From: an uncultured Rikenellaceae bacterium
GTDB taxonomy: Bacteria > Bacteroidota > Bacteroidia > Bacteroidales > VadinHA17
Assembly: GCA_964634565.1 (NCBI GenBank)
Contig: CAZWLP010000006.1
Location: 6,242-70,241, forward strand
DNA length: 64,000 nucleotides
Reading direction: 5' to 3'
Shown here: positions 2,286 through 29,142 of the stretch, one piece after another
How positions within the stretch are numbered: the first letter of the stretch is position 1
Layout of the letters: every line of letters starts with the position of its first letter
Notes under the pieces: generated by a model
What the model saw: only the letters and a program-made list of their open reading frames with translations
Databases searched by the model: none
Told to the model about the DNA's origin: nothing
Translations under genes and position numbers: made by a program

Positions 2286-2924
2286 TTATTTACTGTCTTG
2301 TCCTTTCCAGAGAAACTTATTTTCCTCTCCTCTCCAAAGTTTGATAATATTCTTTTTATGTGTCAGGATAATTGCTGCCCCGATTAGAATTGAAAATATC
2401 TTAAATATCAACGAGGGAGTATCAAATAAGAATAGAAGAAAGAGAGGAAAAGACAGTCCGGCCGACATTGAACTTACAGAAACATAGCCTGTTATAAGCA
2501 GAACAATCAGAAATACAACAAAGCACGATATTGTAATAAGCGGGCTTAGTGAAAGTAGTACACCAAAAGTAGTTGCAACTCCCTTTCCTCCTTTAAATCC
2601 GGCAAATGCAGGGAATACATGACCTGCTATTGCAATTGATCCGGTAAGTATTTGAAGATTTACCAGTTCAGCAGATCCGCTTTCAGCCAGGTTGAAAATA
2701 AAGGGGAGGCTTGCTGCCAGCCATCCCTTACCAATATCAATAATTAATACCGGTATACCGGTGCTCCAGCCAAGTACCCTTATCGTATTTGTCGCACCTG
2801 CATTACCACTTCCGTGATCACGGATATCCAGGTTGTGGAATAGTTTTCCAGCCCATACAGCAGTGGCAATTGAGCCAAGTGCATAGGCTGCAAGGCAGGT
2901 AAGTATTAGCAGTTTAACATTCAT
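2286..2924 (-). CDS. plsY: Glycerol-3-phosphate acyltransferase PlsY
   Basis: 212-aa polytopic membrane protein with the GSGNAGATN and FKGGKGVAT motifs. Confidence 0.85.
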   Translation of the reverse strand: MNVKLLILTCLAAYALGSIATAVWAGKLFHNLDIRDHGSGNAGATNTIRVLGWSTGIPVLIIDIGKGWLAASLPFIFNLAESGSAELVNLQILTGSIAIAGHVFPAFAGFKGGKGVATTFGVLLSLSPLITISCFVVFLIVLLITGYVSVSSMSAGLSFPLFLLFLFDTPSLIFKIFSILIGAAIILTHKKNIIKLWRGEENKFLWKGQDSK

Positions 2925-2938
2925 AATATTTGCTGAAA

Positions 2939-4558
2939 TTAGAGCACAGGTCCATATTGCATCATCTCTTTTATCCGGTCATTATATGTAAACCTCTGGA
3001 AATTTTCTATAAACAGGTCAGCCAGGTTAACTGCAGCAATATGCCATTCCTTAGGACTTGACCATGAGTTTCTCGGATCAAGAAGATTTGTATCAACCCC
3101 TTCTAGCCTGTCGGGGATTGACAATCCAAATACAGGGATATCACTGAACGATGCCTCGTTAATTGATCCATCAAGAATGGAGTTGATAATTGTACGGGTT
3201 GGTTTAATGTCTATTCTGTTTCCTACTCCATATTTTCCTCCTACCCATCCTGTATTTACGAGCCATGCATCAGCATTGTGTTGCTCCATCTTTCTTATCA
3301 GCTCATGGGCGTATATTGAAGGGTCAAGTAGCAGGAAGGCAGCACCAAAACAGGCTGAAAATGATGGCACCGGTTCTTTGATCCCCAGTTCTGTACCTGC
3401 AACTTTCGCAGTATATCCGCTTACAAAGTAATAGCCTGTCTGTCCCTTGCTAAGCTTTGAGACAGGAGGAAGAACACCAAAGGCATCTGCTGTTAAGAAT
3501 ATTACTTTCTGAGCATGGCCGGCCTTTGATACAGGCTTAACAATATTCTTAATATGGTAAATAGGGTATGAAACTCTTGTGTTTTCAGTTTTCCTGTTAT
3601 CATCAAAATTTATCTTACCGTCGCGGTGTACTACAACATTCTCAAGCAGGGCATCCCTTTTAATAGCATTATATATATCCGGTTCCTTGTCTTTGCTAAG
3701 ATGGATGCACTTAGCATAACAACCTCCCTCAAAATTAAAAATACCATCGTCATCCCAGCCGTGCTCATCATCACCTATCAATGCCCTGTCCGGGTCGGTC
3801 GATAATGTTGTTTTACCGGTACCTGACAGACCAAAGAATATAGCAACGTCACCTTTTTTCCCGACATTTGCCGAGCAATGCATAGCGGCAATACCCTGTA
3901 AGGGCAGGTAGTAGTTCATTACCGAGAATATTCCTTTTTTCATCTCACCGCCATACCATGATCCACCAACGACAGCCATTCCCTTTGTAAGGTCGAAAAA
4001 AACAAAAGTATCTGAATGAAGGCCCATCTCTTTCCAGTCGGGGTTGTTGGTTTTAGATGCGGTAAGAAAGACAAAATCTGGTTCAAAACTTTCAAGCTCT
4101 TCCTCAGTTGGCCTGATAAACATATTTTTAACAAAGTGTGCCTGCCAGGCCACTTCCATTATAAATCTTACCCTAAGGCGGGTGGACTCATTGGCTCCGC
4201 AGTAACAGTCTACCACAAATAACCTTTTTTCAGACAATTGTCTGGCAGCGAGTTTGTGACAATGATCCCATGTTTTCTGGTCTATAGGTTTATTATCAGA
4301 AACAATAGAATTGTCAGTTTTCCACCAGACAGTATCTTTTGTCTTTTCATCCTTAACAATATATTTATCCTTTGGCGATCTTCCGGTATATATACCTGTA
4401 TCAACAGCAACTGCTCCGCTTTTGGTAATGAGCCCCATCTCAAATCTTTCAAGGCCGGACCTGGTTTCTTCAATAAATAGTTTTTCATAACCGGGATTAT
4501 AGATTATCTCAACTGGGTCAGAAATACCATAGCCTGCAAGAGCATCTTTAGTAATCAT
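2939..4558 (-). CDS. pckA: Phosphoenolpyruvate carboxykinase (ATP)
   Basis: 539 aa. Kinase-1a motif [11 protein letters not shown], plus IGDDEHGW and length typical of ATP-PEPCK. Confidence 0.93.
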
Positions 4559-17659: not shown

Positions 17660-20600
17660 TTATCTTGAATGCAGTAGGATTTTATCGTACAGTTCTTTAG
17701 GTTTAAATGGCTTGAGTATATAATCGTTGATATTAAGTCCTTCAATCTTATCTTCATGTTCCGACATTATAGCTGCAGTAAGTGCAATAATAGGAATATC
17801 TTTGATTTCCGGTTTTTCAGACTCCCTTATAATTCCCGATGCTTCAATGCCATCCATTTCGGGCATATGTAGATCCATTAAGATAAGATCGTACTCGTTG
17901 TTTTGTATCATGTCAAGTGCAATTTTCCCATTTTCGGCATGACTCACAATTATTCCCCACTTTGAGAGGAACTTATTAGCCACAAAGAAATTTATCTTAT
18001 TATCTTCTGCGATAAGTACTCTTTTACCTGTCAGCTGATCAAGTGTTCCTTCTTCTATTGATTGACTTCCCTTACTTGCTGAACTTGTTGCTGAAAGAAT
18101 AAACTTAAGTGTAAAACTGAAGCTGGATCCCTTTCCTATATCACTTTTAACCTCTATTTTACTACCCTGAAGCTCGATTAGTTTCTTAACAATTGATAGT
18201 CCCAGACCGGTGCCGCCATATTTTCTCGTTGTATCTTCCGATGCCTGGGTGTAGCTTTCAAAAATTGTATCAAGCTTGTCTTTTGGGATACCGATACCAG
18301 TATCTTCAACGGAGAAGCGTATTTCAATATCTTTTTCGTCTCTTTGTAACTCATCTATTTTTAGTTTAATAGAACCTGCAGAAGTGAATTTTAAAGAGTT
18401 TGAAAGCAGGTTTGAAAGTATCTGGTTAAGTCTTATCGGGTCACCAATAACTTCAGATGGCAGGGTTTCAGAGCGCTCAATAACAAATTGCAGTCCTTTC
18501 TCATCCGTCCTGAATGAGTAAGTTCTTTTAAGATCGTTAATAAAGTCATGGAGATTAAAGATGGTCTTCTCGAAAACTATCATACCTGATTCCATCTTAT
18601 TAAAATCAAGTACATCATTTACCAGTGTAAGCAGGTGATTACCGGAGAAACGAAGTGTTTTAATATATTCCATCTGATCGCTTCTGGGATTTCCCTGCAA
18701 CAGAAGGTTAGTTATGCCTAATACTTCATTTAGAGGTGTTCTTATCTCATGACTCATAGTTGACATAAACTGTTGTTTTAACCTTGCAGCTTCTTCAGCC
18801 TTCTTCCTTTCGATCACAAGGTTAGCAAGCATTTCCTTTCTCTGTATTACAAGGGCAATCTGGTTACCTATAATATCTATTACCTGGAGGTCGTGATTGG
18901 TAAATACAGATTCATCCTCATAATCCTGGAGAACCATGGCACCTATAATCTTATTATTAATTGTTAATGGCACTCCAAGCCAAACCTTGCATTCGGTTCC
19001 AACAAGGTCTATTAATTTGGCTTTTTCCAGTTTTTCAATGTCCTTTTGTCTCAGCAGAGTGGGTTTGCCTTCATTAATAAGCCATCCGGTAAGAGTTCCT
19101 TTGGTTGGAACCATATCAAATTGATCTTTCTCATCATTATATAATGGAAGGCTTAGTGTTTGATCGTTCTCATTATATAGTACTATATAGAAATTCTTGG
19201 TGTTGTAAAGCCTGCTTATCTCATTCTTGAATATTGTGAAGATATCCTGGAATTCGGTTTGAGTAAGAGCCACATTGGAAATATTCTGGACAACAGCTTT
19301 AAGATCACTTTCCTTCTGTTGGTCTGAAATATTCCTGTAGATAGCGAATAAAGATGTAGTGAAGTCATTAAAAGAAACTGGCTTAATAAGGAGAGATACA
19401 AATATTATCTCACCATTTTTTCTTTTTCTGTAAGTTTCAACCGCTATGGTTTCGTTTTTACTGGCCCTGTTGGTAAATTGTTTTCCTTCATCAGGTATAT
19501 TGTCAGGAATTATCAGATTGTCAATATTCTTTCCTAAACATTCCTCTTCGCTATATCCAAATTCCCTTATAAACTCCCTGTTAACTCTCTCTATTGTTCC
19601 ATCCTGACTGGTCTGCACAATGCTTTCAGGAGCTGACTCAATAAGTGTTTCAAGTTGGATTTTTTCTCTTAGGATTTCATTCTGTATCTTTTTCTTCTCT
19701 GTTATGTCTGTTAGAACACCTCTGTATCCCAGTAGTTTACCTCCTTTATTATAGATTCCTGTAGTCTGTGAGAGCACCTGTATCTCTTCTCCGTCTGATG
19801 TGCAGGCCAGATATTCATTTGATATAATAACTCCAGGTTTATCAATCTTTTTTAAATTATTAAATACTTTTTTAAGTTCCGATTCGTGGAACATGTTCCT
19901 TATAGATAGGCCTTTATCCATATCGTCCCTGGTATAGCCAAATTTTGTAAGGCCGTTTGAGTTTGCAAAGGTAAGTTTGCCTTTCAGGCTGATTTCGAAT
20001 ACCCCATTGGGGATCATTTCTGCAAATCGTTCAAAAATATCTCCCTGTGTTAAGAGTTCTTTTTCTCTTGATCTCTGGATTACTCCAGGTTCCCAGATAA
20101 GTATTACTTCACCTGTGTTAAGCCTTATACCAAAGTAATAGCCTTCATCTTCCTTATCAAAATCAAGGATGGTCTGTTTATTCGGCTGGCCTGTAAGTAC
20201 TATTTTACCAATTAATTCCAGGATAATATCTTTATTTTTTATATCCAGCTGATTAAGGTCCCTGCCAATTATCTTATCAGGATCCATACCCCTGAACTCA
20301 ATAGAATCATTATTAATATATTCCAGTATAAATCTGCCCTTTGAGTCTGGGTTTACTATCATTACAAAGTTCGTAAGAGACTCGAAAAGATCTCTAAGGC
20401 GCTCGAAGGTCTGGTTGATATCATCGACTGTTGATTCGTTTGAGATTACAGGCGTGTAGCTTGTTAGAAGGAATCGGTCTTCTCCAATAATAACGGGTTC
20501 TGCCGAGAACTTAAAATCTTTAACTTCTCCTTTTTTTGTCTTTATCGTGATATTAAAATCCTTAACCTTTTTTAATCTTGGCAGTTTGCGGATGAATTTA

Positions 20601-20893
20601 TCACTTTGAACAATATTGGCAAAAAGATCTATATCATCTGAATTTTTACCAATAATATCTTCTCTTTTATAGCCCAGGGTATCGAGGAAGTTCTGATTTA
20701 CTTCAATGTATCTTCCATCAGAAAGATTACTTATAGCCATCATCTGTGGTGTAGACCTGAATACATCTATAATCCTGTTCTTGCTTTCTTCAATTACTTT
20801 GAGATCCCTGATATTCCTTTTAAGCTCAGAGTTCTCTTGCTTGAGGGCAGCCACTTGTCTTTGGAGATCTTCAATTGAATATTGGTTTTTCAT
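17660..20893 (-). CDS. Soluble hybrid sensor histidine kinase/response regulator (coiled coil, multiple PAS, GAF, HisKA, HATPase_c, REC)
   Basis: 1077 aa with H-box MSHEIRTPLN, G-box GTGLGLSIVKKL and receiver LILMDLHMPEMDG. No hydrophobic transmembrane segment is visible. Confidence 0.85.
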   Translation of the reverse strand: MKNQYSIEDLQRQVAALKQENSELKRNIRDLKVIEESKNRIIDVFRSTPQMMAISNLSDGRYIEVNQNFLDTLGYKREDIIGKNSDDIDLFANIVQSDKFIRKLPRLKKVKDFNITIKTKKGEVKDFKFSAEPVIIGEDRFLLTSYTPVISNESTVDDINQTFERLRDLFESLTNFVMIVNPDSKGRFILEYINNDSIEFRGMDPDKIIGRDLNQLDIKNKDIILELIGKIVLTGQPNKQTILDFDKEDEGYYFGIRLNTGEVILIWEPGVIQRSREKELLTQGDIFERFAEMIPNGVFEISLKGKLTFANSNGLTKFGYTRDDMDKGLSIRNMFHESELKKVFNNLKKIDKPGVIISNEYLACTSDGEEIQVLSQTTGIYNKGGKLLGYRGVLTDITEKKKIQNEILREKIQLETLIESAPESIVQTSQDGTIERVNREFIREFGYSEEECLGKNIDNLIIPDNIPDEGKQFTNRASKNETIAVETYRKRKNGEIIFVSLLIKPVSFNDFTTSLFAIYRNISDQQKESDLKAVVQNISNVALTQTEFQDIFTIFKNEISRLYNTKNFYIVLYNENDQTLSLPLYNDEKDQFDMVPTKGTLTGWLINEGKPTLLRQKDIEKLEKAKLIDLVGTECKVWLGVPLTINNKIIGAMVLQDYEDESVFTNHDLQVIDIIGNQIALVIQRKEMLANLVIERKKAEEAARLKQQFMSTMSHEIRTPLNEVLGITNLLLQGNPRSDQMEYIKTLRFSGNHLLTLVNDVLDFNKMESGMIVFEKTIFNLHDFINDLKRTYSFRTDEKGLQFVIERSETLPSEVIGDPIRLNQILSNLLSNSLKFTSAGSIKLKIDELQRDEKDIEIRFSVEDTGIGIPKDKLDTIFESYTQASEDTTRKYGGTGLGLSIVKKLIELQGSKIEVKSDIGKGSSFSFTLKFILSATSSASKGSQSIEEGTLDQLTGKRVLIAEDNKINFFVANKFLSKWGIIVSHAENGKIALDMIQNNEYDLILMDLHMPEMDGIEASGIIRESEKPEIKDIPIIALTAAIMSEHEDKIEGLNINDYILKPFKPKELYDKILLHSR

Positions 20894-20951: not shown

Positions 20952-21602
20952 TCATCCTTCTTTTTTAAGTTTTGATATATAGTATCTGCAAAAGCTGTTA
21001 AGTCCGCATTCATTGCATAGAGGTTTACGGGCCTTGCAAATATATCTTCCGTGAAGTATTAACCAGTGATGTGCCAGCGGAATAAGGTTTTCGGGAATAT
21101 TTGCTATTAACTGTCGCTCCACTGATAAAGGTGTTTTAGCATTGCTGCTTAAACCAATCCTGTTCGATACTCTGAAGACATGAGTGTCTACTGCCATGGC
21201 AGGTTTGTTAAAAATAACAGAGGCTATAACATTTGCAGTTTTACGTCCTACACCCGGTAATCTCTGAAGCTGTTCTATATCTGAAGGAACCTTATTGCTA
21301 AATTCTTCAGCCAGCATTCTTGCCATTCCGCTCAGGTGCTTTGCCTTATTATTAGGATATGAACATGATTTAATATATTCAAATATTTCATCCTGACTGG
21401 CTGCAGCCATATCTTTTGCTGAGGGGTAACGCAAGAACAGTGCGGGAGTAATCTGGTTAACCCTCTTATCCGTACATTGAGCCGACAGTATTACTGCTAC
21501 TATAAGTTCAAAGGGGTCGCTGTACACAAGTTCGGTCTCCGCTACAGGCCTGTTTTTAAGAAAATAATCAATAGTTAGTCTGTATCTCTCTTTTTTAGTC
21601 AT
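20952..21602 (-). CDS. nth: Endonuclease III
   Basis: 216 aa with helix-hairpin-helix LPGVGRKTANV and a C-terminal Fe-S motif C.....C..C.....C. Confidence 0.9.
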   Translation of the reverse strand: MTKKERYRLTIDYFLKNRPVAETELVYSDPFELIVAVILSAQCTDKRVNQITPALFLRYPSAKDMAAASQDEIFEYIKSCSYPNNKAKHLSGMARMLAEEFSNKVPSDIEQLQRLPGVGRKTANVIASVIFNKPAMAVDTHVFRVSNRIGLSSNAKTPLSVERQLIANIPENLIPLAHHWLILHGRYICKARKPLCNECGLNSFCRYYISKLKKEG

Positions 21603-21650
21603 CAGCAGCTTTGTGAAATTTTGTTAAATTATCAGAAAAATATCATTATT

Positions 21651-21682
21651 CTTTGGAAATATAGATATGAAGTATACATTTG
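21651..21682 (+). promoter_or_regulatory. Candidate Bacteroidota primary-sigma promoter of the aromatic operon (-33 TTTG, -7 TAcaTTTG)
   Basis: TTTG lies at 21651-21654 and TACATTTG at 21675-21682, separated by 20 nt. This fits the TTTG/TAnnTTTG consensus and places a transcription start about 15 nt before the first leader ATG. Confidence 0.45.
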
Positions 21683-21703
21683 TTGAAATATTTATTTACA
21701 CAG

Positions 21704-21763
21704 ATGTACAATTACAGCCATAACTACTTTTATTTTTATTATTATTTTCCTTTAAAGAGCTAA
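21704..21763 (+). promoter_or_regulatory. Leader peptide 1 of the aromatic operon attenuator: MYNYSHNYFYFYYYFPLKS*
   Basis: Direct translation gives 19 codons, of which 7 are Tyr and 3 are Phe. Confidence 0.7.
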
Positions 21764-21796
21764 GGGCTGTTTTGAACATTGATAAATTGTTAACCG

Positions 21797-21820
21797 GTCC
21801 CTTTAAGGGACTTTTTTTTT
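21797..21820 (+). terminator. Attenuator terminator 1
   Basis: gtccct (21797-21802) pairs with agggac (21806-21811), followed by nine T (21812-21820). An aaggg copy overlaps the leader stop codon (21762-21766) and can pair with ccctt (21799-21803) instead. Confidence 0.6.
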
Positions 21821-21824
21821 GGCT

Positions 21825-21881
21825 ATGGATAAGTACAGTTCATATTACTACTATTATTTTTTTTATTATCACCCGGGATAA
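21825..21881 (+). promoter_or_regulatory. Leader peptide 2 of the aromatic operon attenuator: MDKYSSYYYYYFFYYHPG*
   Basis: Direct translation gives 18 codons, of which 8 are Tyr and 2 are Phe. It begins 4 nt after the terminator 1 T-run. Confidence 0.7.
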
Positions 21882-21910
21882 TTATTAAGGCATATATTTT
21901 AATAATTACT

Positions 21911-21937
21911 ATCCCGGATTAAACCGGGATTTTTTTT
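21911..21937 (+). terminator. Attenuator terminator 2
   Basis: atcccgg (21911-21917) pairs with ccgggat (21924-21930), followed by a T-run to 21937. An alternative, longer helix forms between 21873-21886 (ccgggataattatt, overlapping the leader 2 stop) and 21901-21917. The pheA ATG is 8 nt downstream. Confidence 0.7.
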
Positions 21938-21945
21938 ACAATAAT

Positions 21946-22755
21946 ATGAGAATAGCAATACAGGGGGAAAAAGGGAGCTTTCATGAAGAAGCAGTAAAGA
22001 GTTTTTTTATAAAAGGATCTTACGAATTAGTTTCATGTACTTCATTCGATTCAACAATTGATGCTATAAAGCAATCCAGGGCTGATATGGCTGTAATGGC
22101 AATTGAGAATGCACGTTCCGGAAGTATCTTATATAATTACTCGCTGATAAGGGAATCGGGATTAAAGGTACATGGAGAAAAAGATATAAGAATCAGGCAG
22201 AATTTAATGGCACTGCCCGGTCAGACAATTGATAATATAAATGAAGTGTGGTCACACCCCGTTGCTATTTCGCAGTGTATGAATTTTCTTAGCGCTTATC
22301 CCGAAATAAGACTGGTAGAGAAGGACGACACAGCATCCAGTGCAAGGATTATTAGTAATAATGAAATTGCAGGAGTTGCAGCGATAGGAGCAGATATAGC
22401 TGCTGAAATTTATAAGCTGAATATCCTGGCATCGGGTATTGAATCTTATAAAATGAACTATACCAGGTTCCTGCTTGTTGGCGTCGGAATGAACAATACC
22501 TATAAGGCTAATAAAGCTTCGGTTTGTTTTTCACTTGGTCATAAGCCCGGATCTCTTGCAAAGCTGCTGGTTATACTTGCAGCGATGAATATAAATTTAT
22601 CCAAGATACTATCGGTCCCTAAGATTAACAGCGACTGGGAATACCTTTTTTACCTTGATCTTGAATTTAATGGCGATACAGAGGTGGAACATATGCTAAA
22701 GGTAATTCATAATAACACAAGAGAACTGGAAGTGCTGGGTCTCTATAAGATTTAA
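21946..22755 (+). CDS. pheA: Prephenate dehydratase (PDT plus ACT domains)
   Basis: 269 aa. Starts MRIAIQGEKGSFHEEA, contains TRF, and has an ACT-like C-terminus (SLGHKPGSLAKLL). Confidence 0.88.
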   Translation: MRIAIQGEKGSFHEEAVKSFFIKGSYELVSCTSFDSTIDAIKQSRADMAVMAIENARSGSILYNYSLIRESGLKVHGEKDIRIRQNLMALPGQTIDNINEVWSHPVAISQCMNFLSAYPEIRLVEKDDTASSARIISNNEIAGVAAIGADIAAEIYKLNILASGIESYKMNYTRFLLVGVGMNNTYKANKASVCFSLGHKPGSLAKLLVILAAMNINLSKILSVPKINSDWEYLFYLDLEFNGDTEVEHMLKVIHNNTRELEVLGLYKI

Positions 22756-22766
22756 AATATATTGTA

Positions 22767-23918
22767 ATGAAAGCAGCCGGAAGATTAAATCATATAAAGG
22801 AATATTATTTTTCCATTAAACTGGATGAAATAAGACAATTGAAAGCCAGTGGTGAGGATATTATAAACCTGGGTATTGGCAGTCCGGATTTAGCCCCTTC
22901 GCCAAGGGTTATTGAAAAGGCTATCGAGACATTAAAATCCAACGACTCTCATGGTTATCAGGCATATAACAGCATCCCTGATCTGCGTCTGGCATTTAGT
23001 GAATTTTACAGTAAAGTTTATAATGTAAACCTTGATTTTGAAAAGGAGATTTTACCACTAATGGGATCAAAAGAAGGAGTAATGCATTTGAGCCTTGCTT
23101 TTCTGAATAGTGCTGATGGAGTGCTTATTCCTGATCCGGGTTATCCTGCTTATGCTTCCGCTGCTAAAATATGTGGTGCCCGGGTCTTATATTATAACCT
23201 TCTTGAGAAAAATAACTGGCTCCCTGATTTAGAAGAGCTGAGGAGCATGGATCTTTCGGGAGTAAGAATAATGTGGGTAAATTATCCGCATATGCCTACA
23301 GGCAAGGTTGCACCGGCAGGTGTACTTAAGAACCTGACAGAGTTCGGGAAAGAAAATAATATTTTGATTATAAATGATAATCCCTACAGTCTGATTCTTA
23401 ATTCAGAGCCTCTTAGTCTTCTATCTTTTGACCCCCTGAAGAACTATTCTATGGAACTAAACTCTTTGAGTAAATCCTATAATATGGCAGGTTGGCGGGT
23501 AGGGATGATTGCAGGATCTGAAGATAATATTAAAAATGTATTGAAGGTAAAGAGTAATATAGATTCGGGAATGTTTCTTCCTGTTCAGCATGCTGCTATT
23601 GAGGCTCTCAGGACAGAAGGGGAATGGATAGATAATTTAAACAGTATTTATGAAAGAAGGAGGGAGATAGTTTATAAGATATTAAATATCCTTGGATCGC
23701 CTTACAGAGAAGATCAGGCCGGCCTCTTTGTATGGTCGGGTCTGCCCCCTGCTTATGAGTCTTCCTACGATTATTCTGATTATTTGCTTAAGAAGTATGG
23801 AGTATTTATTACTCCCGGGTCTGTCTTCGGGACAAATGGCAGAAAACATATTCGTACCTCTCTTTGTTTGCCTGAAGAATTACTGCAGAAATGTTTAAAA
23901 CGAATTACATCAAAATAA
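22767..23918 (+). CDS. Class I/II PLP aminotransferase (probable aromatic/prephenate aminotransferase)
   Basis: 383 aa with the PLP-lysine motif SLSKSYNMAGWRVGM. It sits inside the aromatic operon. Confidence 0.75.
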   Translation: MKAAGRLNHIKEYYFSIKLDEIRQLKASGEDIINLGIGSPDLAPSPRVIEKAIETLKSNDSHGYQAYNSIPDLRLAFSEFYSKVYNVNLDFEKEILPLMGSKEGVMHLSLAFLNSADGVLIPDPGYPAYASAAKICGARVLYYNLLEKNNWLPDLEELRSMDLSGVRIMWVNYPHMPTGKVAPAGVLKNLTEFGKENNILIINDNPYSLILNSEPLSLLSFDPLKNYSMELNSLSKSYNMAGWRVGMIAGSEDNIKNVLKVKSNIDSGMFLPVQHAAIEALRTEGEWIDNLNSIYERRREIVYKILNILGSPYREDQAGLFVWSGLPPAYESSYDYSDYLLKKYGVFITPGSVFGTNGRKHIRTSLCLPEELLQKCLKRITSK

Positions 23919-23932
23919 TAAAATTGTAAATT

Positions 23933-25012
23933 ATGAGCGACGAACTAAGTCTCGATAATAGTCAGCTTTGCTGCCACGATAAGAGGCCTTTGCTGGTTTC
24001 AGGGCCCTGCTCGGCAGAGTCGGAATTCCAGGTGCTTGAGACTGCAAGGCAGCTAAAAGCAATAGGAATAAATATTTTCAGAGCAGGGATATGGAAACCC
24101 CGTACCCGACCTGATACCTTCGAGGGTATGGGATCAATTGCACTGCCCTGGCTTAAAAAGGCAAAGGAGGAAACCGGGATGCTGACTGCCACCGAAGTTG
24201 CTAATGTATGGCATGTTAAGGAAGCTATCAGTCATGAAGTTGATATATTGTGGATTGGTGCAAGAACTACTGCAAATCCATTTGCAGTCCAGGATATTGC
24301 CGATGCTCTCAGGGGATATAATATACCTGTATTTGTTAAGAATCCTATTAATCCTGATATTGAGCTATGGATAGGTGCCTTGCAGAGGTTAAATAAAGTA
24401 GGACTGAGGAATCTTATTGCTGTTCACAGGGGCTTTAGCTACTATGGGAAAAATTCTTATCGTAATCCGCCCCAGTGGGAAATTCCAATAGAATTGAAAA
24501 GACGAATACCTGAAATTCCTATTATAACAGATCCAAGTCATATCTGTGGCTCAAAGGATTTACTGTTTAATGTTTCTCAAACAGCTATGGATCTTGACTT
24601 TGATGGACTGTTTATGGAGTCCCATTTTAGCCCTGATAAAGCTCTAAGCGATAGGGAGCAGCAGGTTACTCCTGCTCAATTGAAGGATATTCTCGACCGG
24701 CTTATCCTTAGGAATCACGATGTTAAATCATCTCAGCAACTTGAGGGTCTGGAAGGACTAAGGCGACAGATTGACCAGTGGGATGAAGAGCTGCTGAGAG
24801 TACTGAGAAGCAGGATGGCAATTTCAGAGGCAATCGGGGATTATAAGAAGAAAGAAAATATTACCATCCTTCAAACAAACAGGTGGTCTGAGATTCTTGA
24901 AGACAGACTTCGTAAAGCAAAGACACTGGGATTAAGCGAGCAGTTTATTATTCAGTTATTTAAACAGGTACATCAGGAATCTATTAACTTTCAGAATAGA
25001 GTAATGAATTAA
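23933..25012 (+). CDS. Bifunctional 3-deoxy-7-phosphoheptulonate (DAHP) synthase (class I-beta) / chorismate mutase type II
   Basis: 359 aa. The N-terminal roughly 260 aa are KDO8PS-like (PLLVSGPCSAES, DPSH). The C-terminal roughly 90 aa form a helical CM_2 domain (RRQIDQWDEELLRVLRSRMAIS). Confidence 0.85.
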   Translation: MSDELSLDNSQLCCHDKRPLLVSGPCSAESEFQVLETARQLKAIGINIFRAGIWKPRTRPDTFEGMGSIALPWLKKAKEETGMLTATEVANVWHVKEAISHEVDILWIGARTTANPFAVQDIADALRGYNIPVFVKNPINPDIELWIGALQRLNKVGLRNLIAVHRGFSYYGKNSYRNPPQWEIPIELKRRIPEIPIITDPSHICGSKDLLFNVSQTAMDLDFDGLFMESHFSPDKALSDREQQVTPAQLKDILDRLILRNHDVKSSQQLEGLEGLRRQIDQWDEELLRVLRSRMAISEAIGDYKKKENITILQTNRWSEILEDRLRKAKTLGLSEQFIIQLFKQVHQESINFQNRVMN

Positions 25013-25054
25013 TCTGCCGGAATTAATACCTTTAAAGTTGGAAACAAGGCATAT

Positions 25055-26083
25055 ATGGAAAAAATATTCTATACAATACAGGGTAAGAGATCTGATATAA
25101 TAATCGGAAGGGCCTGGGAGCTTGTCGGTGACCTGATTCCTGCCGGACAAACTGTAATTATTACTGACAGGAATGTGTCGGGTTATTACTTAGATGAATT
25201 TCCTGATTGTAAGGTGCTTACATTGTCGCCTGGAGAGTCTTCAAAAAGCCTCTCTACTGTCGATCAGATTGTAAAAGAGTTACTTAAACTGGAGGTCGAC
25301 AGAAGCTATTTCCTTCTGGGTATAGGTGGCGGTGTTGTAAGTGATATTACGGGTTTCGTCGCATCTGTGTATATGAGAGGTGTCAGGTTCGGATTGGTAT
25401 CTACAAGTCTTTTATCGCAGGTAGATGCCAGTATCGGAGGTAAAAACGGAGTAAATAGTAGCGGGTATAAGAATGTTATAGGCTGTTTTACTCAACCTGA
25501 ATTTGTTATATGCGATACCACTATGTTAAAAACCCTTCCTTATGAGGATTTTAAGTCAGGGCTTGCAGAGATAGTTAAGTATGCACTTATACGTGATAGT
25601 AAATTATTCTGTCTTCTTGAGGAAAGGGTCTCGAGCATTAATGAAGGTAACAAATCATTAATGGATGAGATACTTAGCCGTTCGGTTAAAATAAAGATAG
25701 ATATTGTTGAAGAAGATGTAAGGGAAAAAGGGGAGAGGCGTTTACTGAATTTTGGTCATACTATTGGTCATGCTATTGAGGCAGCAAATGGTCTGAAGCA
25801 TGGACTGGCTATAGCCAGGGGTATGGTTTTCTCATCGTTAATTTCACTTGAGGAAGGTTACCTCGATAAAGATAAATACAATAGAATAATCGCCTTGTTG
25901 AAGTCATTGGGCTTGCTTGATGGAGTTCCGGGAATATCCAGTTCCTATTTAGAGATTGTAAGACGTGATAAAAAGAGAGAAAAGAATATAATTCACTTTG
26001 TTCTCTTAAATGATATTGGTAGTGCATTTATTAAGGAGATGCCACTTCAGGACCTTGTTACATGGATGGAAAATAAGATTTAG
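25055..26083 (+). CDS. aroB: 3-dehydroquinate synthase
   Basis: 342 aa with GGGVVSDITGFVAS, NFGHTIGHAIE and LKHG motifs. Confidence 0.9.
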   Translation: MEKIFYTIQGKRSDIIIGRAWELVGDLIPAGQTVIITDRNVSGYYLDEFPDCKVLTLSPGESSKSLSTVDQIVKELLKLEVDRSYFLLGIGGGVVSDITGFVASVYMRGVRFGLVSTSLLSQVDASIGGKNGVNSSGYKNVIGCFTQPEFVICDTTMLKTLPYEDFKSGLAEIVKYALIRDSKLFCLLEERVSSINEGNKSLMDEILSRSVKIKIDIVEEDVREKGERRLLNFGHTIGHAIEAANGLKHGLAIARGMVFSSLISLEEGYLDKDKYNRIIALLKSLGLLDGVPGISSSYLEIVRRDKKREKNIIHFVLLNDIGSAFIKEMPLQDLVTWMENKI

Positions 26084-26085
26084 CT

Positions 26086-27348
26086 ATGATTGCAAGGATA
26101 TATCCCTCTGATTCTTCAGGATCTGTAGTCTCGCAGGCTTCAAAGAGTTCCATGCAAAGAGCAGTAGCAGCTGCCTTATTATCAAATGGACTGTCGGTGC
26201 TTTCAAACGTATCTGATTCTGCAGATTCTCTTTCTGCCTTGAAAATGGCTGAATGCCTGGGTGCCAGTGTAGAAAGAACCGGTGATAAGGTGAATATCAG
26301 AGGTGGCTTAGATCCTGTGTGCAGGGAATTGAATTGTGGCGAATCAGGCCTCGGAGTACGATTGTTTTCAGCAATAGCATCTCTGTGCGATAAAGAAATA
26401 ACTATCAGTGGATCGGGATCTGTTATGAAACGTCCAATGGCTATGATCGAAAAGTCTTTGAAGGAGCTGGGAGCAAAGGCAGATTCTGCCCGTGGTTTTC
26501 TGCCAATTAAGATTAAGGGCCCTATTCACGGCGGTAAATTAAAGATAGACGGATCTTTTAGTTCTCAATTTATTAGTGGATTATTATTTGCTCTACCACT
26601 TCTTGAAGAAGACTCGATTCTGCTTATTGATTCATTAAAGAGTAAGCCATATATAGATTTGACCATTAGTGTTTTAGAATCATTTGGTATAAGTATTGAC
26701 AAGCATGATTACAGGGAAATATATATTAGAGGAAGGCAGGTATATAAGTCTGCCTGCTATCGTGTTGAAGAAGACTGGAGCGGAATATCATTTCTCGCAA
26801 TCCTGGGGGCAATATCAGGTCGTATATCTGTAAAGGGCTTATCACTTAATTCTGTTCAGTCTGATAAGGTAATAGTTGATGTATTGCGTAAAGCCGGTGC
26901 AGTAGTCGAGACAGTTAAAAATGAACTTATTATTGCACCGGGTAAGCTACTTAAACCCTTTGAATTTGATATATCAGATTGTCCGGATCTTGCACCTCCC
27001 TTAACTGCACTGGCAGCTTATTGTAATGGTAAGTCAGTGCTCAGGGGCACAAGCAGGCTGGCAGGAAAGGAAAGCAACAGGTCTGAAACACTGAAGCTTG
27101 AGTTTGCCAGGCTGGGGGTGAATATTGATATTCAGAACGATTCGATGGAGATTTTTGGAAAATCCAGGGTTGGCTCCGGCGAGGTTGATTCGCATGATGA
27201 TCACAGAATAGCCATGGCCCTTGCAATAGCTGCTGTGAAGGCAGAGGGGCCTGTTACAATAAACAATGCAGAAGCTATAAATAAATCTTATCCGGGATTT
27301 TTTAATGATATGGTGAAACTGGGTATAAAAGTTGAATTATTTAATTAA
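26086..27348 (+). CDS. aroA: 3-phosphoshikimate 1-carboxyvinyltransferase (EPSP synthase)
   Basis: 420 aa. SKSSMQRA, DHRIAMALAIAA and LAGKESNR-type motifs are present. Confidence 0.88.
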   Translation: MIARIYPSDSSGSVVSQASKSSMQRAVAAALLSNGLSVLSNVSDSADSLSALKMAECLGASVERTGDKVNIRGGLDPVCRELNCGESGLGVRLFSAIASLCDKEITISGSGSVMKRPMAMIEKSLKELGAKADSARGFLPIKIKGPIHGGKLKIDGSFSSQFISGLLFALPLLEEDSILLIDSLKSKPYIDLTISVLESFGISIDKHDYREIYIRGRQVYKSACYRVEEDWSGISFLAILGAISGRISVKGLSLNSVQSDKVIVDVLRKAGAVVETVKNELIIAPGKLLKPFEFDISDCPDLAPPLTALAAYCNGKSVLRGTSRLAGKESNRSETLKLEFARLGVNIDIQNDSMEIFGKSRVGSGEVDSHDDHRIAMALAIAAVKAEGPVTINNAEAINKSYPGFFNDMVKLGIKVELFN

Positions 27349-27355
27349 CTGGAAG

Positions 27356-28351
27356 ATGAATACATTTGGAAAGCTTTTCAGGGTCTCTCTATTTGGAGAA
27401 TCACACGGACCAGCCGTAGGTGTAATGATAGATGGCTGTCCGCCGGGAATTGAAATTGCAGAAGAAGAGATATTGATGGAACTCGACAGGAGGAGGCCGG
27501 GTGCAAAAGGAACAACGCCAAGGCAGGAGCATGATATACCTTCTTTTATGTCAGGAATATTCAATGGCAGAACAACTGGTGCACCAATCTTAGTATCTAC
27601 AAATAATACCAATAAGGTATCCTCTGATTATGATAAGTTTATAAATATTCCCCGCCCTGGTCATGCGGATATGACTTCCCGGATTAAATACAGGGGTTTC
27701 TCAGACCCACGTGGAGGGGGCCATTTTTCGGGCCGCCTGACATGGGGCATCGTTGTAGCAGGTGTTTTTGCCAGAAAAATTCTGGGAAATACTTTAATCA
27801 ATGCTGCTGTGTCGGAAGTTGGAGGTTCAATAGATATTGAAGACGTAATAAAATCAGCACTTGCTGACAATGATTCTGTTGGCGGAATTATTGAATGTTC
27901 TGTAAAAGGTATTCCTGCAGGCCTTGGTGAGCCTTTTTTTATGTCGCTTGAATCGCAGATATCGGCCATGGTATTCTCTATACCTGCAATAAAGGGAATA
28001 GAATTCGGGTCTGGTTTCAAATCTGCCTCTATGAGGGGTTCAGATCATAATGATATGATAATTGATAAGGAAGGAACAACAGCTACTAATAATGCAGGAG
28101 GAATAAATGGTGGTATAAGTAATGGTAATGAGATTTACTTCAGAGTTGCTGTAAAGCCAACATCAAGCATATCCACGCCGCAGGAGACTGTTGATCTTGA
28201 GAAGGATGAGCTTGTTGAACTTAGGGTAAAGGGAAGACATGATGCTTGCATTGCATTGAGAATGCCGGTAATTATTGAGTCGGCGACGGCAATTGTCATG
28301 GCCGATCTCTTATTAACAGACAGGGGAATAAATGGTGAAAGGGAAATATAA
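27356..28351 (+). CDS. aroC: Chorismate synthase
   Basis: Start taken at the ATG at 27356 (MNTFGKLFRVSLFGESHG...). The GRHD motif is present. The ORF-track start at 27332 overlaps the end of aroA. Confidence 0.88.
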   Translation: MNTFGKLFRVSLFGESHGPAVGVMIDGCPPGIEIAEEEILMELDRRRPGAKGTTPRQEHDIPSFMSGIFNGRTTGAPILVSTNNTNKVSSDYDKFINIPRPGHADMTSRIKYRGFSDPRGGGHFSGRLTWGIVVAGVFARKILGNTLINAAVSEVGGSIDIEDVIKSALADNDSVGGIIECSVKGIPAGLGEPFFMSLESQISAMVFSIPAIKGIEFGSGFKSASMRGSDHNDMIIDKEGTTATNNAGGINGGISNGNEIYFRVAVKPTSSISTPQETVDLEKDELVELRVKGRHDACIALRMPVIIESATAIVMADLLLTDRGINGEREI

Positions 28352-28353
28352 TA

Positions 28354-29142
28354 ATGATTGAAAGAATATTAATTGCGGGTGCGGGGAAAATGGGGTCATG
28401 GCTGGCTGAAACTTTATGCCTGGATTATGAGGTGGGGGTATATGACACTAATCCTGACAGCTTAAAGTATCTTTTTAATACATATAGATTTATGGAGCCT
28501 GGAGAGATCAGTGACTTTAAGCCACAGATAGTAATAAATGCTGTCGGACTTAAGCAGACAGAGCAGGCCTTTGATACCCTTTTGCCGTTTCTGCCCGAGG
28601 ATTGTATATTATCTGATATTACATCCGTTAAGAACGGTCTGGAGGAGTATTATATAAAAAGTGGTCGAAGATTTGTATCCACTCATCCCATGTTCGGGCC
28701 CACATTTGGAAATATCAGGAACCTTAGCGACCAGAATGCTATTATTATTAAAGAATCGGACCCTGCAGGAAAGAAATTTTTTATGGATTTCTATGGCTTG
28801 CTTAAACTGAAAATATTTGAATATAGTTTCGTTGAGCACGACCAGATAATTGCATATTCTTTATCTGTCCCTTTTAGTTCGACGATAGTATTTTCGGCCT
28901 GTATGAAAAAACTGGAAGTTCCGGGAACCACATTTAAGGCCCACCTGGATATAGCCAGAGGTTTGCTTTCGGAAGATGATGATTTGCTAAGCGGAATCTT
29001 ACTCAATAAATATTCCATAGGTAAACTTCAGGAGATCATGAAAAGACTGGAAGATCTTATTTCAATGCTGGAAAACAATAAGGAGGACGAGCTGCATCAG
29101 CTTTTCGACAGGCTGCGCGTTAATATTGGAGTAGCCAGCTGA
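28354..29142 (+). CDS. tyrA: Prephenate dehydrogenase
   Basis: 262 aa with a Rossmann motif IAGAGKMGSWLA and the STHPMFGP motif. Confidence 0.8.
   Translation: MIERILIAGAGKMGSWLAETLCLDYEVGVYDTNPDSLKYLFNTYRFMEPGEISDFKPQIVINAVGLKQTEQAFDTLLPFLPEDCILSDITSVKNGLEEYYIKSGRRFVSTHPMFGPTFGNIRNLSDQNAIIIKESDPAGKKFFMDFYGLLKLKIFEYSFVEHDQIIAYSLSVPFSSTIVFSACMKKLEVPGTTFKAHLDIARGLLSEDDDLLSGILLNKYSIGKLQEIMKRLEDLISMLENNKEDELHQLFDRLRVNIGVAS

Follow-up and report, generated by a model that had tools for sequence, protein, structure and literature searches.

Two predicted Tyr/Phe leader-peptide attenuators in series before the pheA operon in a clade of uncultured Bacteroidales

The pheA operon of an uncultured Rikenellaceae bacterium (contig CAZWLP010000006.1, positions 6,242 to 70,241; this 64-kb stretch is called the window below) is preceded by a 295-nt leader that contains two Phe/Tyr-rich (F/Y) short open reading frames (mini-ORFs), each with its own hairpin and T-run. 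The leader very probably comprises two ribosome-mediated transcription attenuators in series, both sensing the charging of Tyr- and Phe-tRNA. Sequence features that mark leader-peptide attenuators as a class are found here: an amino-acid-rich ORF, a terminator, a computationally predicted antiterminator that excludes it, and a matching operon, since the downstream genes belong to the biosynthesis of Phe and Tyr, the amino acids that the leader ORFs would sense.

The leader lies within the gap at 21603-21945, between the minus-strand endonuclease III gene (nth, 20952-21602) and a plus-strand run of seven genes. Its elements are:

21652..21682, plus strand: Bacteroidetes-type promoter, with a -33 box TTTG (21652-21655), a 19-nt spacer and a -7 box TAcaTTTG (21675-21682)
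21704..21763, plus strand: leader ORF 1, MYNYSHNYFYFYYYFPLKS and stop, 19 residues of which 10 are Tyr/Phe (7 Tyr, 3 Phe)
21702..21781, plus strand: predicted '1:2' anti-antiterminator of module 1, in which ~21702-21719, containing the ATG, pairs with ~21765-21781 beyond the stop
21762..21803, plus strand: predicted antiterminator of module 1, in which AAGGGCUG (21762-21769) pairs with CGG-U-CCCUU (21795-21803, the terminator 5′ arm)
21796..21820, plus strand: intrinsic terminator 1, GGTCCCT-TTA-AGGGACT (hairpin 21796-21812, 7 bp, -9.0 kcal/mol), then T9 (21812-21820)
21825..21881, plus strand: leader ORF 2, MDKYSSYYYYYFFYYHPG and stop, 18 residues of which 10 are Tyr/Phe (8 Tyr, 2 Phe)
21873..21917, plus strand: predicted antiterminator of module 2, in which 21873-21890 pairs with 21897-21906 and 21910-21917 (18 bp, 3-nt bulge)
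21911..21937, plus strand: intrinsic terminator 2, ATCCCGG-ATTAAA-CCGGGAT (hairpin 21911-21930, 7 bp, -11.0 kcal/mol), then a T-run to 21937

For comparison we used loci encoding PheA homologues, all from uncultured Bacteroidales or Bacteroidota: 80 from genomes, 80 from metagenomes, a syntenic contig (L081, 72 % identical) and four near-identical strains (L162-L165). The first-pass annotation of the window had proposed a TTG/TAnnTTTG-type promoter, mini-ORFs at ATG 21704 and ATG 21825 with 10 of 19 and 10 of 18 codons for Tyr or Phe, and a hairpin followed by a T-run after each; the sequence bears out all of these. Both promoter boxes recur at the same position in L081, L002 and L030, and they would place the transcription start near 21688-21692. 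On reading the leader sequence, no second TAnnTTTG box was found between the modules, so that both are presumably carried on one transcript. The regulatory run of ORF1 extends from Y8 to F15 (21725-21748) and that of ORF2 from Y7 to Y15 (21843-21869); the ATG of ORF2 lies 4 nt past the T-run of terminator 1, and 8 nt separate terminator 2 from the pheA ATG. The two strands of the window together have 916 ATG mini-ORFs of 8-40 codons; only ORF1 and ORF2 exceed 50 % F+Y, and the two adjoin each other immediately 5′ of pheA. The two-module leader is a real pattern and not a product of chance. The 64-kb window holds no further mini-ORF with an amino-acid run resembling a leader peptide, and no tRNA or tmRNA gene.

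The modules do not form a recent tandem repeat: TRF finds none, and they are ~55 % identical, with much of this identity owed to common codon and T-run composition. The spacing from ATG1 to ATG2 to the pheA ATG, which the first-pass annotation had singled out, is indeed exactly 121 nt twice in the window, but relatives have spacings of 113-135 nt; as the equality is not kept, we regard it as incidental and reject the period as a functional feature. A division of labour into one Tyr module and one Phe module was likewise rejected, with both codons present in both modules of all five tandem lineages described below, and module 2 slightly more Tyr-weighted than module 1 in each. A two-input response from a module duplicated in series had also been envisaged; the tandem form is conserved in one clade, but its inputs are not split into Tyr and Phe.

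In each module the stop-codon region repeats the terminator 3′ arm and can sequester the 5′ arm instead, as had been recognised from the duplicated motifs, all of which are present: CCGGGAT at 21873-21879 and 21924-21930, AAGGG at 21762-21766 and 21805-21809, and CCTTTA at 21749-21754. In module 2 the strand CCGGGAU (21873-21879) overlaps the ORF2 stop TAA (21879-21881), and its partner AUCCCGG (21911-21917) is the terminator 5′ arm. The alternative helix, put at about 14 bp by the first-pass annotation, exists but is longer: CCGGGAU extends an AT-rich hairpin into the 18-bp antiterminator, at -17.7 kcal/mol, and the duplex of stop region and 5′ arm has an energy of -15.0 kcal/mol (z = -6.5). 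The corresponding AAGGGCUG strand of module 1 overlaps the ORF1 stop TAA (21761-21763), and with the 3′ arm present a longer alternative is predicted that combines 21748-21757/21801-21810 with 21764-21769/21795-21800. The 1:2 layout suggested earlier for this module, by pairing of CCUUUA with UAAGGG, is weak (-3.8 kcal/mol), but a stronger 1:2 helix occurs at ~21702-21719/~21765-21781, with -15.9 kcal/mol (z = -3.7, p = 0.003), and is part of the minimum-energy structure predicted for the free RNA. Of the single-module relatives, 81 % have an equivalent pairing that is significant. Thus configured, untranslated module 1 folds as 1:2 plus terminator. The 1:2 pairing is absent from every module 2 examined, and the fold of untranslated module 2 is the antiterminator.

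Folding with a ribosome-like mask gave the expected switch between antiterminator and terminator. Masking the early run left the antiterminator free, and masking at the stop codon left the terminator alone. For a co-transcriptional test, only the RNA made before each terminator 3′ arm was folded; despite diverged spacers, the stop-codon segment captured the 5′ arm in 10/10 modules from the five tandem lineages. In the module-1 antiterminator, the pairing is retained through the compensatory pair GGGGCU:AGCCCC in L030 and AGGGAC:GUCCCU in L081; variants of the module-2 antiterminator include UUGGGAU in L081 and the compensatory GGGGACC:GGUCCC in L011.

From these features we infer that the leader is translated, that ribosomes stall in it and that the hairpins terminate transcription. 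On a transcript from one promoter, a ribosome would translate in each module an 18-19-codon mini-ORF of which more than half is Tyr/Phe. When charged Tyr- and Phe-tRNA are ample, the ribosome would reach the stop codon and cover AAGGGCUG (module 1) or CCGGGAU (module 2). The covered segment is the copy of the terminator 3′ arm; once it is masked, the hairpin and U-run would form and RNA polymerase would stop. With too little charged Tyr- or Phe-tRNA, the ribosome would stall early in the aromatic run and leave the stop-codon segment free to pair with the terminator 5′ arm as the antiterminator, allowing the polymerase to continue. As the polymerase must clear both terminators, expression of the operon would approximate the product of two read-through probabilities, and the series would be expected to give a lower basal leak and a steeper response than a single module. 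The extra 1:2 pairing of module 1 would favour termination when the leader is untranslated, and module 2 would act without it.

The same architecture, mostly as a single module, recurs before pheA across the relatives. F/Y leader ORFs stand 5′ of pheA in most of the 161 related loci, and, where the upstream DNA is long enough, nearly all loci have an ATG ORF of ~20 codons, rich in Phe and Tyr and ending ~85 nt before pheA, with the consensus MNIVYNYFISFYYFYFYFKNR. An in-frame F/Y-rich leader ORF was found at ~120 distinct Bacteroidales pheA loci. The mean F+Y count is 9.8 in the ORF frame, compared with 3.3 and 4.7 in the other two frames (n=121 distinct leaders), and each residue is encoded by both of its synonymous codons (TTT 442, TTC 209, TAT 336, TAC 202); enrichment confined to one frame and drawing on both codons points to selection on the reading frame. 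Under strict ORF-plus-terminator criteria, one module was counted at 104 of 147 loci and two modules at 7, the others mostly having an ORF with an imperfect hairpin or T-run, or being truncated.

From 124 distinct sequences (alignment A4) we defined a family of Tyr/Phe leaders of Bacteroidales pheA. Its layout is an F/Y ORF of ~20 codons, a stop, and a GGG(G)AUUUUUGU-like segment with complementarity to the 5′ arm of the terminator, CAAGGGUCCC; in the single-module members, GGGGAUUUUUGU follows the stop codon and is complementary to the 5′ arm CAAGGGUCCCC of a terminator of the GGGTCCC...GGGACCC type (median -15.6 kcal/mol). The duplex of stop region and 5′ arm has a median of -15.4 kcal/mol (z = -5.3 against shuffles) and p <= 0.05 in 96 % of the single-module family, which, with the tandem modules, supports the proposed sequestration of the 5′ arm. 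RNAalifold on a MAFFT alignment of the 124 leaders returned 3 pairs only, because MAFFT misaligns the variable terminator loops, and it was replaced by per-sequence duplex and fold tests and by segments extracted with anchors independent of the pairing. In these segments the share of cells that pair is 81 %, compared with 77.4 +/- 1.0 for shuffles (0/500 reach the observed value), and 16 cells carry double changes (reached by 1/500 shuffles), with all register slides scoring lower. Compensatory changes include GGGGA:UCCCC to GGGGC:GCCCC (L029, L045, L030) and G-C to A-U at the first pair. The covariation of the antiterminator is above control but modest. The predicted Tyr/Phe leader-peptide attenuators before Bacteroidales pheA operons form a large family that is absent from Rfam.

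Some members depart from this layout. At L001, L060, L073, L084, L087 and L091, pheA lies directly 3′ of a leuB-like gene with neither an F/Y leader ORF nor a terminator, and in this subgroup the attenuator was either lost or never gained. An insert of ~110 nt separates the leader terminator from pheA in L005 (~2890-3000) and L086 (~890-1040); it carries a long inverted repeat, GAAACCCACGTG ... CATGTGGGTTCC, and may be a small mobile or structured element. Trp codons occur inside the aromatic run of some leaders (L003, L006, L009 and similar; ..YYFWFYF..), and ORF2 of L011 (2867-2935) ends in WW, suggesting that some lineages sense all three aromatic amino acids.

Two complete modules are found in the window and in L081, L002, L011/L088/L090 and L030, each of these relatives having the second F/Y ORF. 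The tandem loci form an exclusive PheA clade in a neighbour-joining tree (7/138 distinct sequences), with 61-72 % PheA identity. L108 is truncated yet has a module-2-type terminator, and probably belongs to the same clade. Module 1 aligns with the single module found elsewhere, sharing the stop with GGG..UUUUG and the terminator GGUCCC..GGGAC, and in the window it has the elements by which the Bacteroidales family is defined, a stop with GGGCTGTTTTG and the terminator GGTCCC..GGGAC. Module 2 has a terminator of the form (A/G)UCCCGG..CCGGGAU and GGGAU at the stop, a combination found in the tandem clade only. By this alignment, module 1 is the ortholog of the ancestral single module and module 2 is clade-specific. 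Since the module-2 type is confined to one exclusive clade, the doubling arose once and was kept while PheA diverged to 61-72 %. Near-identical strains keep the tandem form, and the sole polymorphism in their leaders, C21873T (L162, L164), changes Pro17 of ORF2 to Ser and an antiterminator C-G to U.G. The pairing is kept and the peptide altered, which argues that the constraint is on the RNA and not on the peptide. The tandem form is, on this evidence, maintained by selection.

Downstream of the leader, the operon runs from 21946 to 29142 on the plus strand and comprises seven genes with gaps of <=42 nt, the next gene being on the opposite strand:

21946-22755, plus strand: pheA, prephenate dehydratase (NCBIfam match below cut-off but specific)
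22767-23918, plus strand: aminotransferase (NCBIfam)
23933-25012, plus strand: DAHP synthase/chorismate mutase fusion, DAHPS/CM (NCBIfam match below cut-off but specific)
25055-26083, plus strand: aroB (NCBIfam, above cut-off)
26086-27348, plus strand: aroA (NCBIfam, above cut-off)
27332-28351, plus strand: aroC (NCBIfam, above cut-off)
28354-29142, plus strand: divergent prephenate-dehydrogenase-like (TyrA-like) gene (NCBIfam, 58.7 bits against a cut-off of 310; below but specific)

The first-pass annotation had tied joint sensing of Tyr and Phe to an operon encoding both prephenate dehydratase and prephenate dehydrogenase. Both codons do occur in both modules, and the second enzyme is represented by the dehydrogenase-like gene, at a score below the cut-off. 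In single-module relatives the order is pheA, aminotransferase, canonical tyrA (319 bits; L005:5072-5914) and DAHPS/CM, as seen up to the DAHPS/CM gene, beyond which those loci do not extend. In the tandem clade it is pheA, aminotransferase, DAHPS/CM, aroB and onward. By this comparison the tandem clade has undergone a rearrangement of gene order in which aroB, aroA and aroC became part of the operon. On the other side of the leader, next to nth, the minus strand encodes a hybrid sensor kinase of 1077 aa (window 17660-20893) with PAS, GAF, HisKA, HATPase and receiver domains, as assigned from syntenic loci; it is syntenic in L081 and L162-L165 and has no apparent link to the attenuator.

Several observations weigh against two working attenuators. 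The support is entirely computational, and the host is an uncultured metagenome-assembled genome. With 7 bp each (-9 and -11 kcal/mol), the terminator stems are short, and the module-1 antiterminator duplex of the window, at -9.3 kcal/mol, surpasses shuffles by a narrow margin (z = -1.7, p = 0.05). For module 2 the two competing states, terminator and antiterminator, hardly differ in energy (-17.8 vs -17.7), so that the outcome there would rest on kinetics. In the masked folds, the footprint of a ribosome stalled late in the run of either module masks the antiterminator strand, and for this reason only the early Tyr/Phe codons would be effective sensors. High conservation of the segments leaves little room for covariation, which is modest. 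ORF2 starts in a U-rich context, not an A-rich one, and in this phylum a Shine-Dalgarno sequence is not to be expected.

The weakness of the module-1 antiterminator, seen in the window and also in L002 (p = 0.22), could be read to mean that only one attenuator works, the other module being either a duplicate in decay or a partial terminator that is constitutive and simply lowers expression; tandem-clade terminators, at -8 to -15 kcal/mol, also tend to fall short of the median strength in the single-module family (-15.6). We consider this improbable, because a relic module would have decayed over a divergence to 61-72 % PheA identity, and all five lineages have retained in both modules the ORF with its aromatic run, the antiterminator strand next to the stop, and the hairpin with its T-run. 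There is a somewhat smaller chance that the hairpins act mainly on translation or mRNA stability, with hairpin 2, for example, modulating pheA initiation. Such a role would suit the position of hairpin 2, 16-35 nt 5′ of the pheA ATG, with terminator 2 ending 8 nt before that codon, given that initiation in Bacteroidota is reportedly thought, after work by Baez et al. in 2019, to depend on unstructured, A-rich upstream sequence. However, runs of 7-9 U follow both hairpins in every lineage, a signature of intrinsic termination that has no role in a purely translational switch, and hairpin 1 is distant from any structural gene; an effect on translation or stability can also coexist with attenuation. 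Least probable of all, and very much so, is that a trans-acting factor, either a protein or an uncharged tRNA as in T-boxes, binds the U/A-rich runs and that the mini-ORFs are incidental or encode functional small aromatic peptides. Nothing specific speaks for it, Rfam giving matches at chance level only. The reading frame is under selection, the ATG and stop are conserved, and the stop is placed on the antiterminator strand. No T-box or other Rfam match was obtained, and the peptide outside the F/Y run varies freely, the change of Pro17 to Ser keeping the RNA pairing.

Beyond two attenuators in series, it is possible, if on balance doubtful, that the doubled leader is a selected two-stage gate, and not a redundant duplicate, that has long been kept in one Bacteroidales clade. 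Stage 1 would terminate by default when untranslated, through the 1:2 pairing, and stage 2, which has no such pairing, would read through by default. The operon would then fire only if translation runs while charged Tyr- or Phe-tRNA is in short supply; its response would be multiplicative and ultrasensitive, and the doubling would have arisen together with the fusion of aroB, aroA and aroC into the pheA operon.

We then compared the element with known leaders. Across the whole 64-kb window, no Rfam family reaches its gathering score. A permissive scan (E <= 10) of 21550-22000 gave Trp_leader at 17.1 bits against a gathering score of 41, with RF01859 and RF01692 absent. Chance-level matches to rseX, anti-hemB and Trp_leader (17 bits) were rejected as terminator-driven, and the 'aspC motif' (18 bits against 100) was rejected as an unrelated riboswitch candidate 5′ of aminotransferase genes (PMC11109978). 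The element is not a member of Rfam Phe_leader, Trp_leader, His_leader or Bacteroid-trp. It resembles Escherichia coli pheL (Phe_leader, RF01859) and trpL, hisL, thrL and leuL in its leader ORF rich in the regulated amino acid, its terminator before the first gene, and a mutually exclusive antiterminator that would be set by ribosome position; module 1 further resembles trpL in a 1:2 helix that would favour termination without translation. It shares no sequence or structure homology with pheL or the classical attenuators, however, and unlike pheL it would sense Tyr and Phe together (and Trp too in some relatives). The antiterminator 5′ strand of its modules overlaps the stop codon itself, the modules stand two in series, and the host phylum lacks Shine-Dalgarno-led initiation, all in contrast to the E. 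coli attenuators.

Tandem riboswitches and T-boxes, such as the tandem TPP riboswitches of Bacillus anthracis, have been proposed to give a steeper, more digital response. Like them, the window leader sets complete sensor-plus-terminator units for the same signal in series before one operon, but its sensor would be the translating ribosome and not a ligand- or tRNA-binding fold. Another parallel is the 'tandem attenuators' of Salmonella mgtCBR (Lee & Groisman 2012, PMC3641672), described there as two short ORFs in one 5′ leader, with translation of each governing alternative stem-loops and transcription into the coding region. The mgtCBR leader is not based on canonical hairpin and U-run terminators. 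Its two ORFs are said, in Lee and Groisman's account, to respond to different signals, ATP and proline-tRNA charging. Both window modules, by contrast, would take the same Tyr/Phe input, and each has its own intrinsic terminator.

Leader-peptide attenuation in Bacteroidota, to which the first-pass annotation had drawn attention, is not new: it is already on record in the Rfam family Bacteroid-trp (RF01692) and in the Flavobacterium psychrophilum pheA-aspC3 leader, where a 'leader peptide attenuation element' is described as THC0290_N_0195 (Guerin et al. 2021, PMC9723704). The transcriptome data described in that paper include condition-dependent read-through of the pheA 5′ region, seen in minimal medium (PMC9723704). 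The F. psychrophilum pheA leader comes from the same phylum and precedes the same first genes, pheA and then an aminotransferase. It has an FYFYW run, and GGGAUUGU near the ORF end is complementary to the terminator 5′ arm ACAAUCCCG, which is followed by a U-run; unlike the window leader, it consists of a single module with a 27-codon ORF and a shorter downstream operon. The Bacteroidales family profile gave no nhmmer match to the F. psychrophilum pheA leader, so that nucleotide homology between the two is not shown. In the same species, the sequence of the ilvE 5′ region (Table S7, PMC9723704) contains three Ile-rich mini-ORFs, MRKFNIIPSIIIAIVIITTAKGML, MTTNTIIIISIIIRSFE and MTTNTIIIIISIIIRSFE, each followed by a hairpin and T-run; where the paper deals with this region, its authors give a name to the first peptide alone and make no remark on the serial arrangement (PMC9723704). 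The ilvE leader shares the serial architecture and the phylum with the window leader, but serves another amino acid and operon, and its last two modules are near-identical recent duplicates, unlike the old modules of the window (~55 % identity). The triple ilvE leader suggests that serial leader-peptide attenuators recur in Bacteroidota. Attenuators have reportedly been predicted in Bacteroidetes/Chlorobi by Vitreschak et al. in 2004 and by Lopatovskaya et al. in 2010. The mechanism class has been known for decades and was already described before pheA in Bacteroidota; the conserved doubling is uncommon and new.

With the family defined, the pheA leader can now be annotated, and regulation assigned, in many uncultured Bacteroidales of gut, sediment and sludge. 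The two-module clade allows a natural comparison of one attenuator with a series of two, which could reveal whether a response becomes sharper when ribosome-sensing units are arranged serially, as proposed for tandem riboswitches, and could show how ribosome and polymerase are coupled where initiation proceeds without Shine-Dalgarno pairing. If the two-stage gate is confirmed, this leader would be the first serial leader-peptide attenuator to be characterised for an amino-acid operon, and its phylum, which initiates without Shine-Dalgarno pairing, would make it a natural system in which to test transcription-translation coupling.

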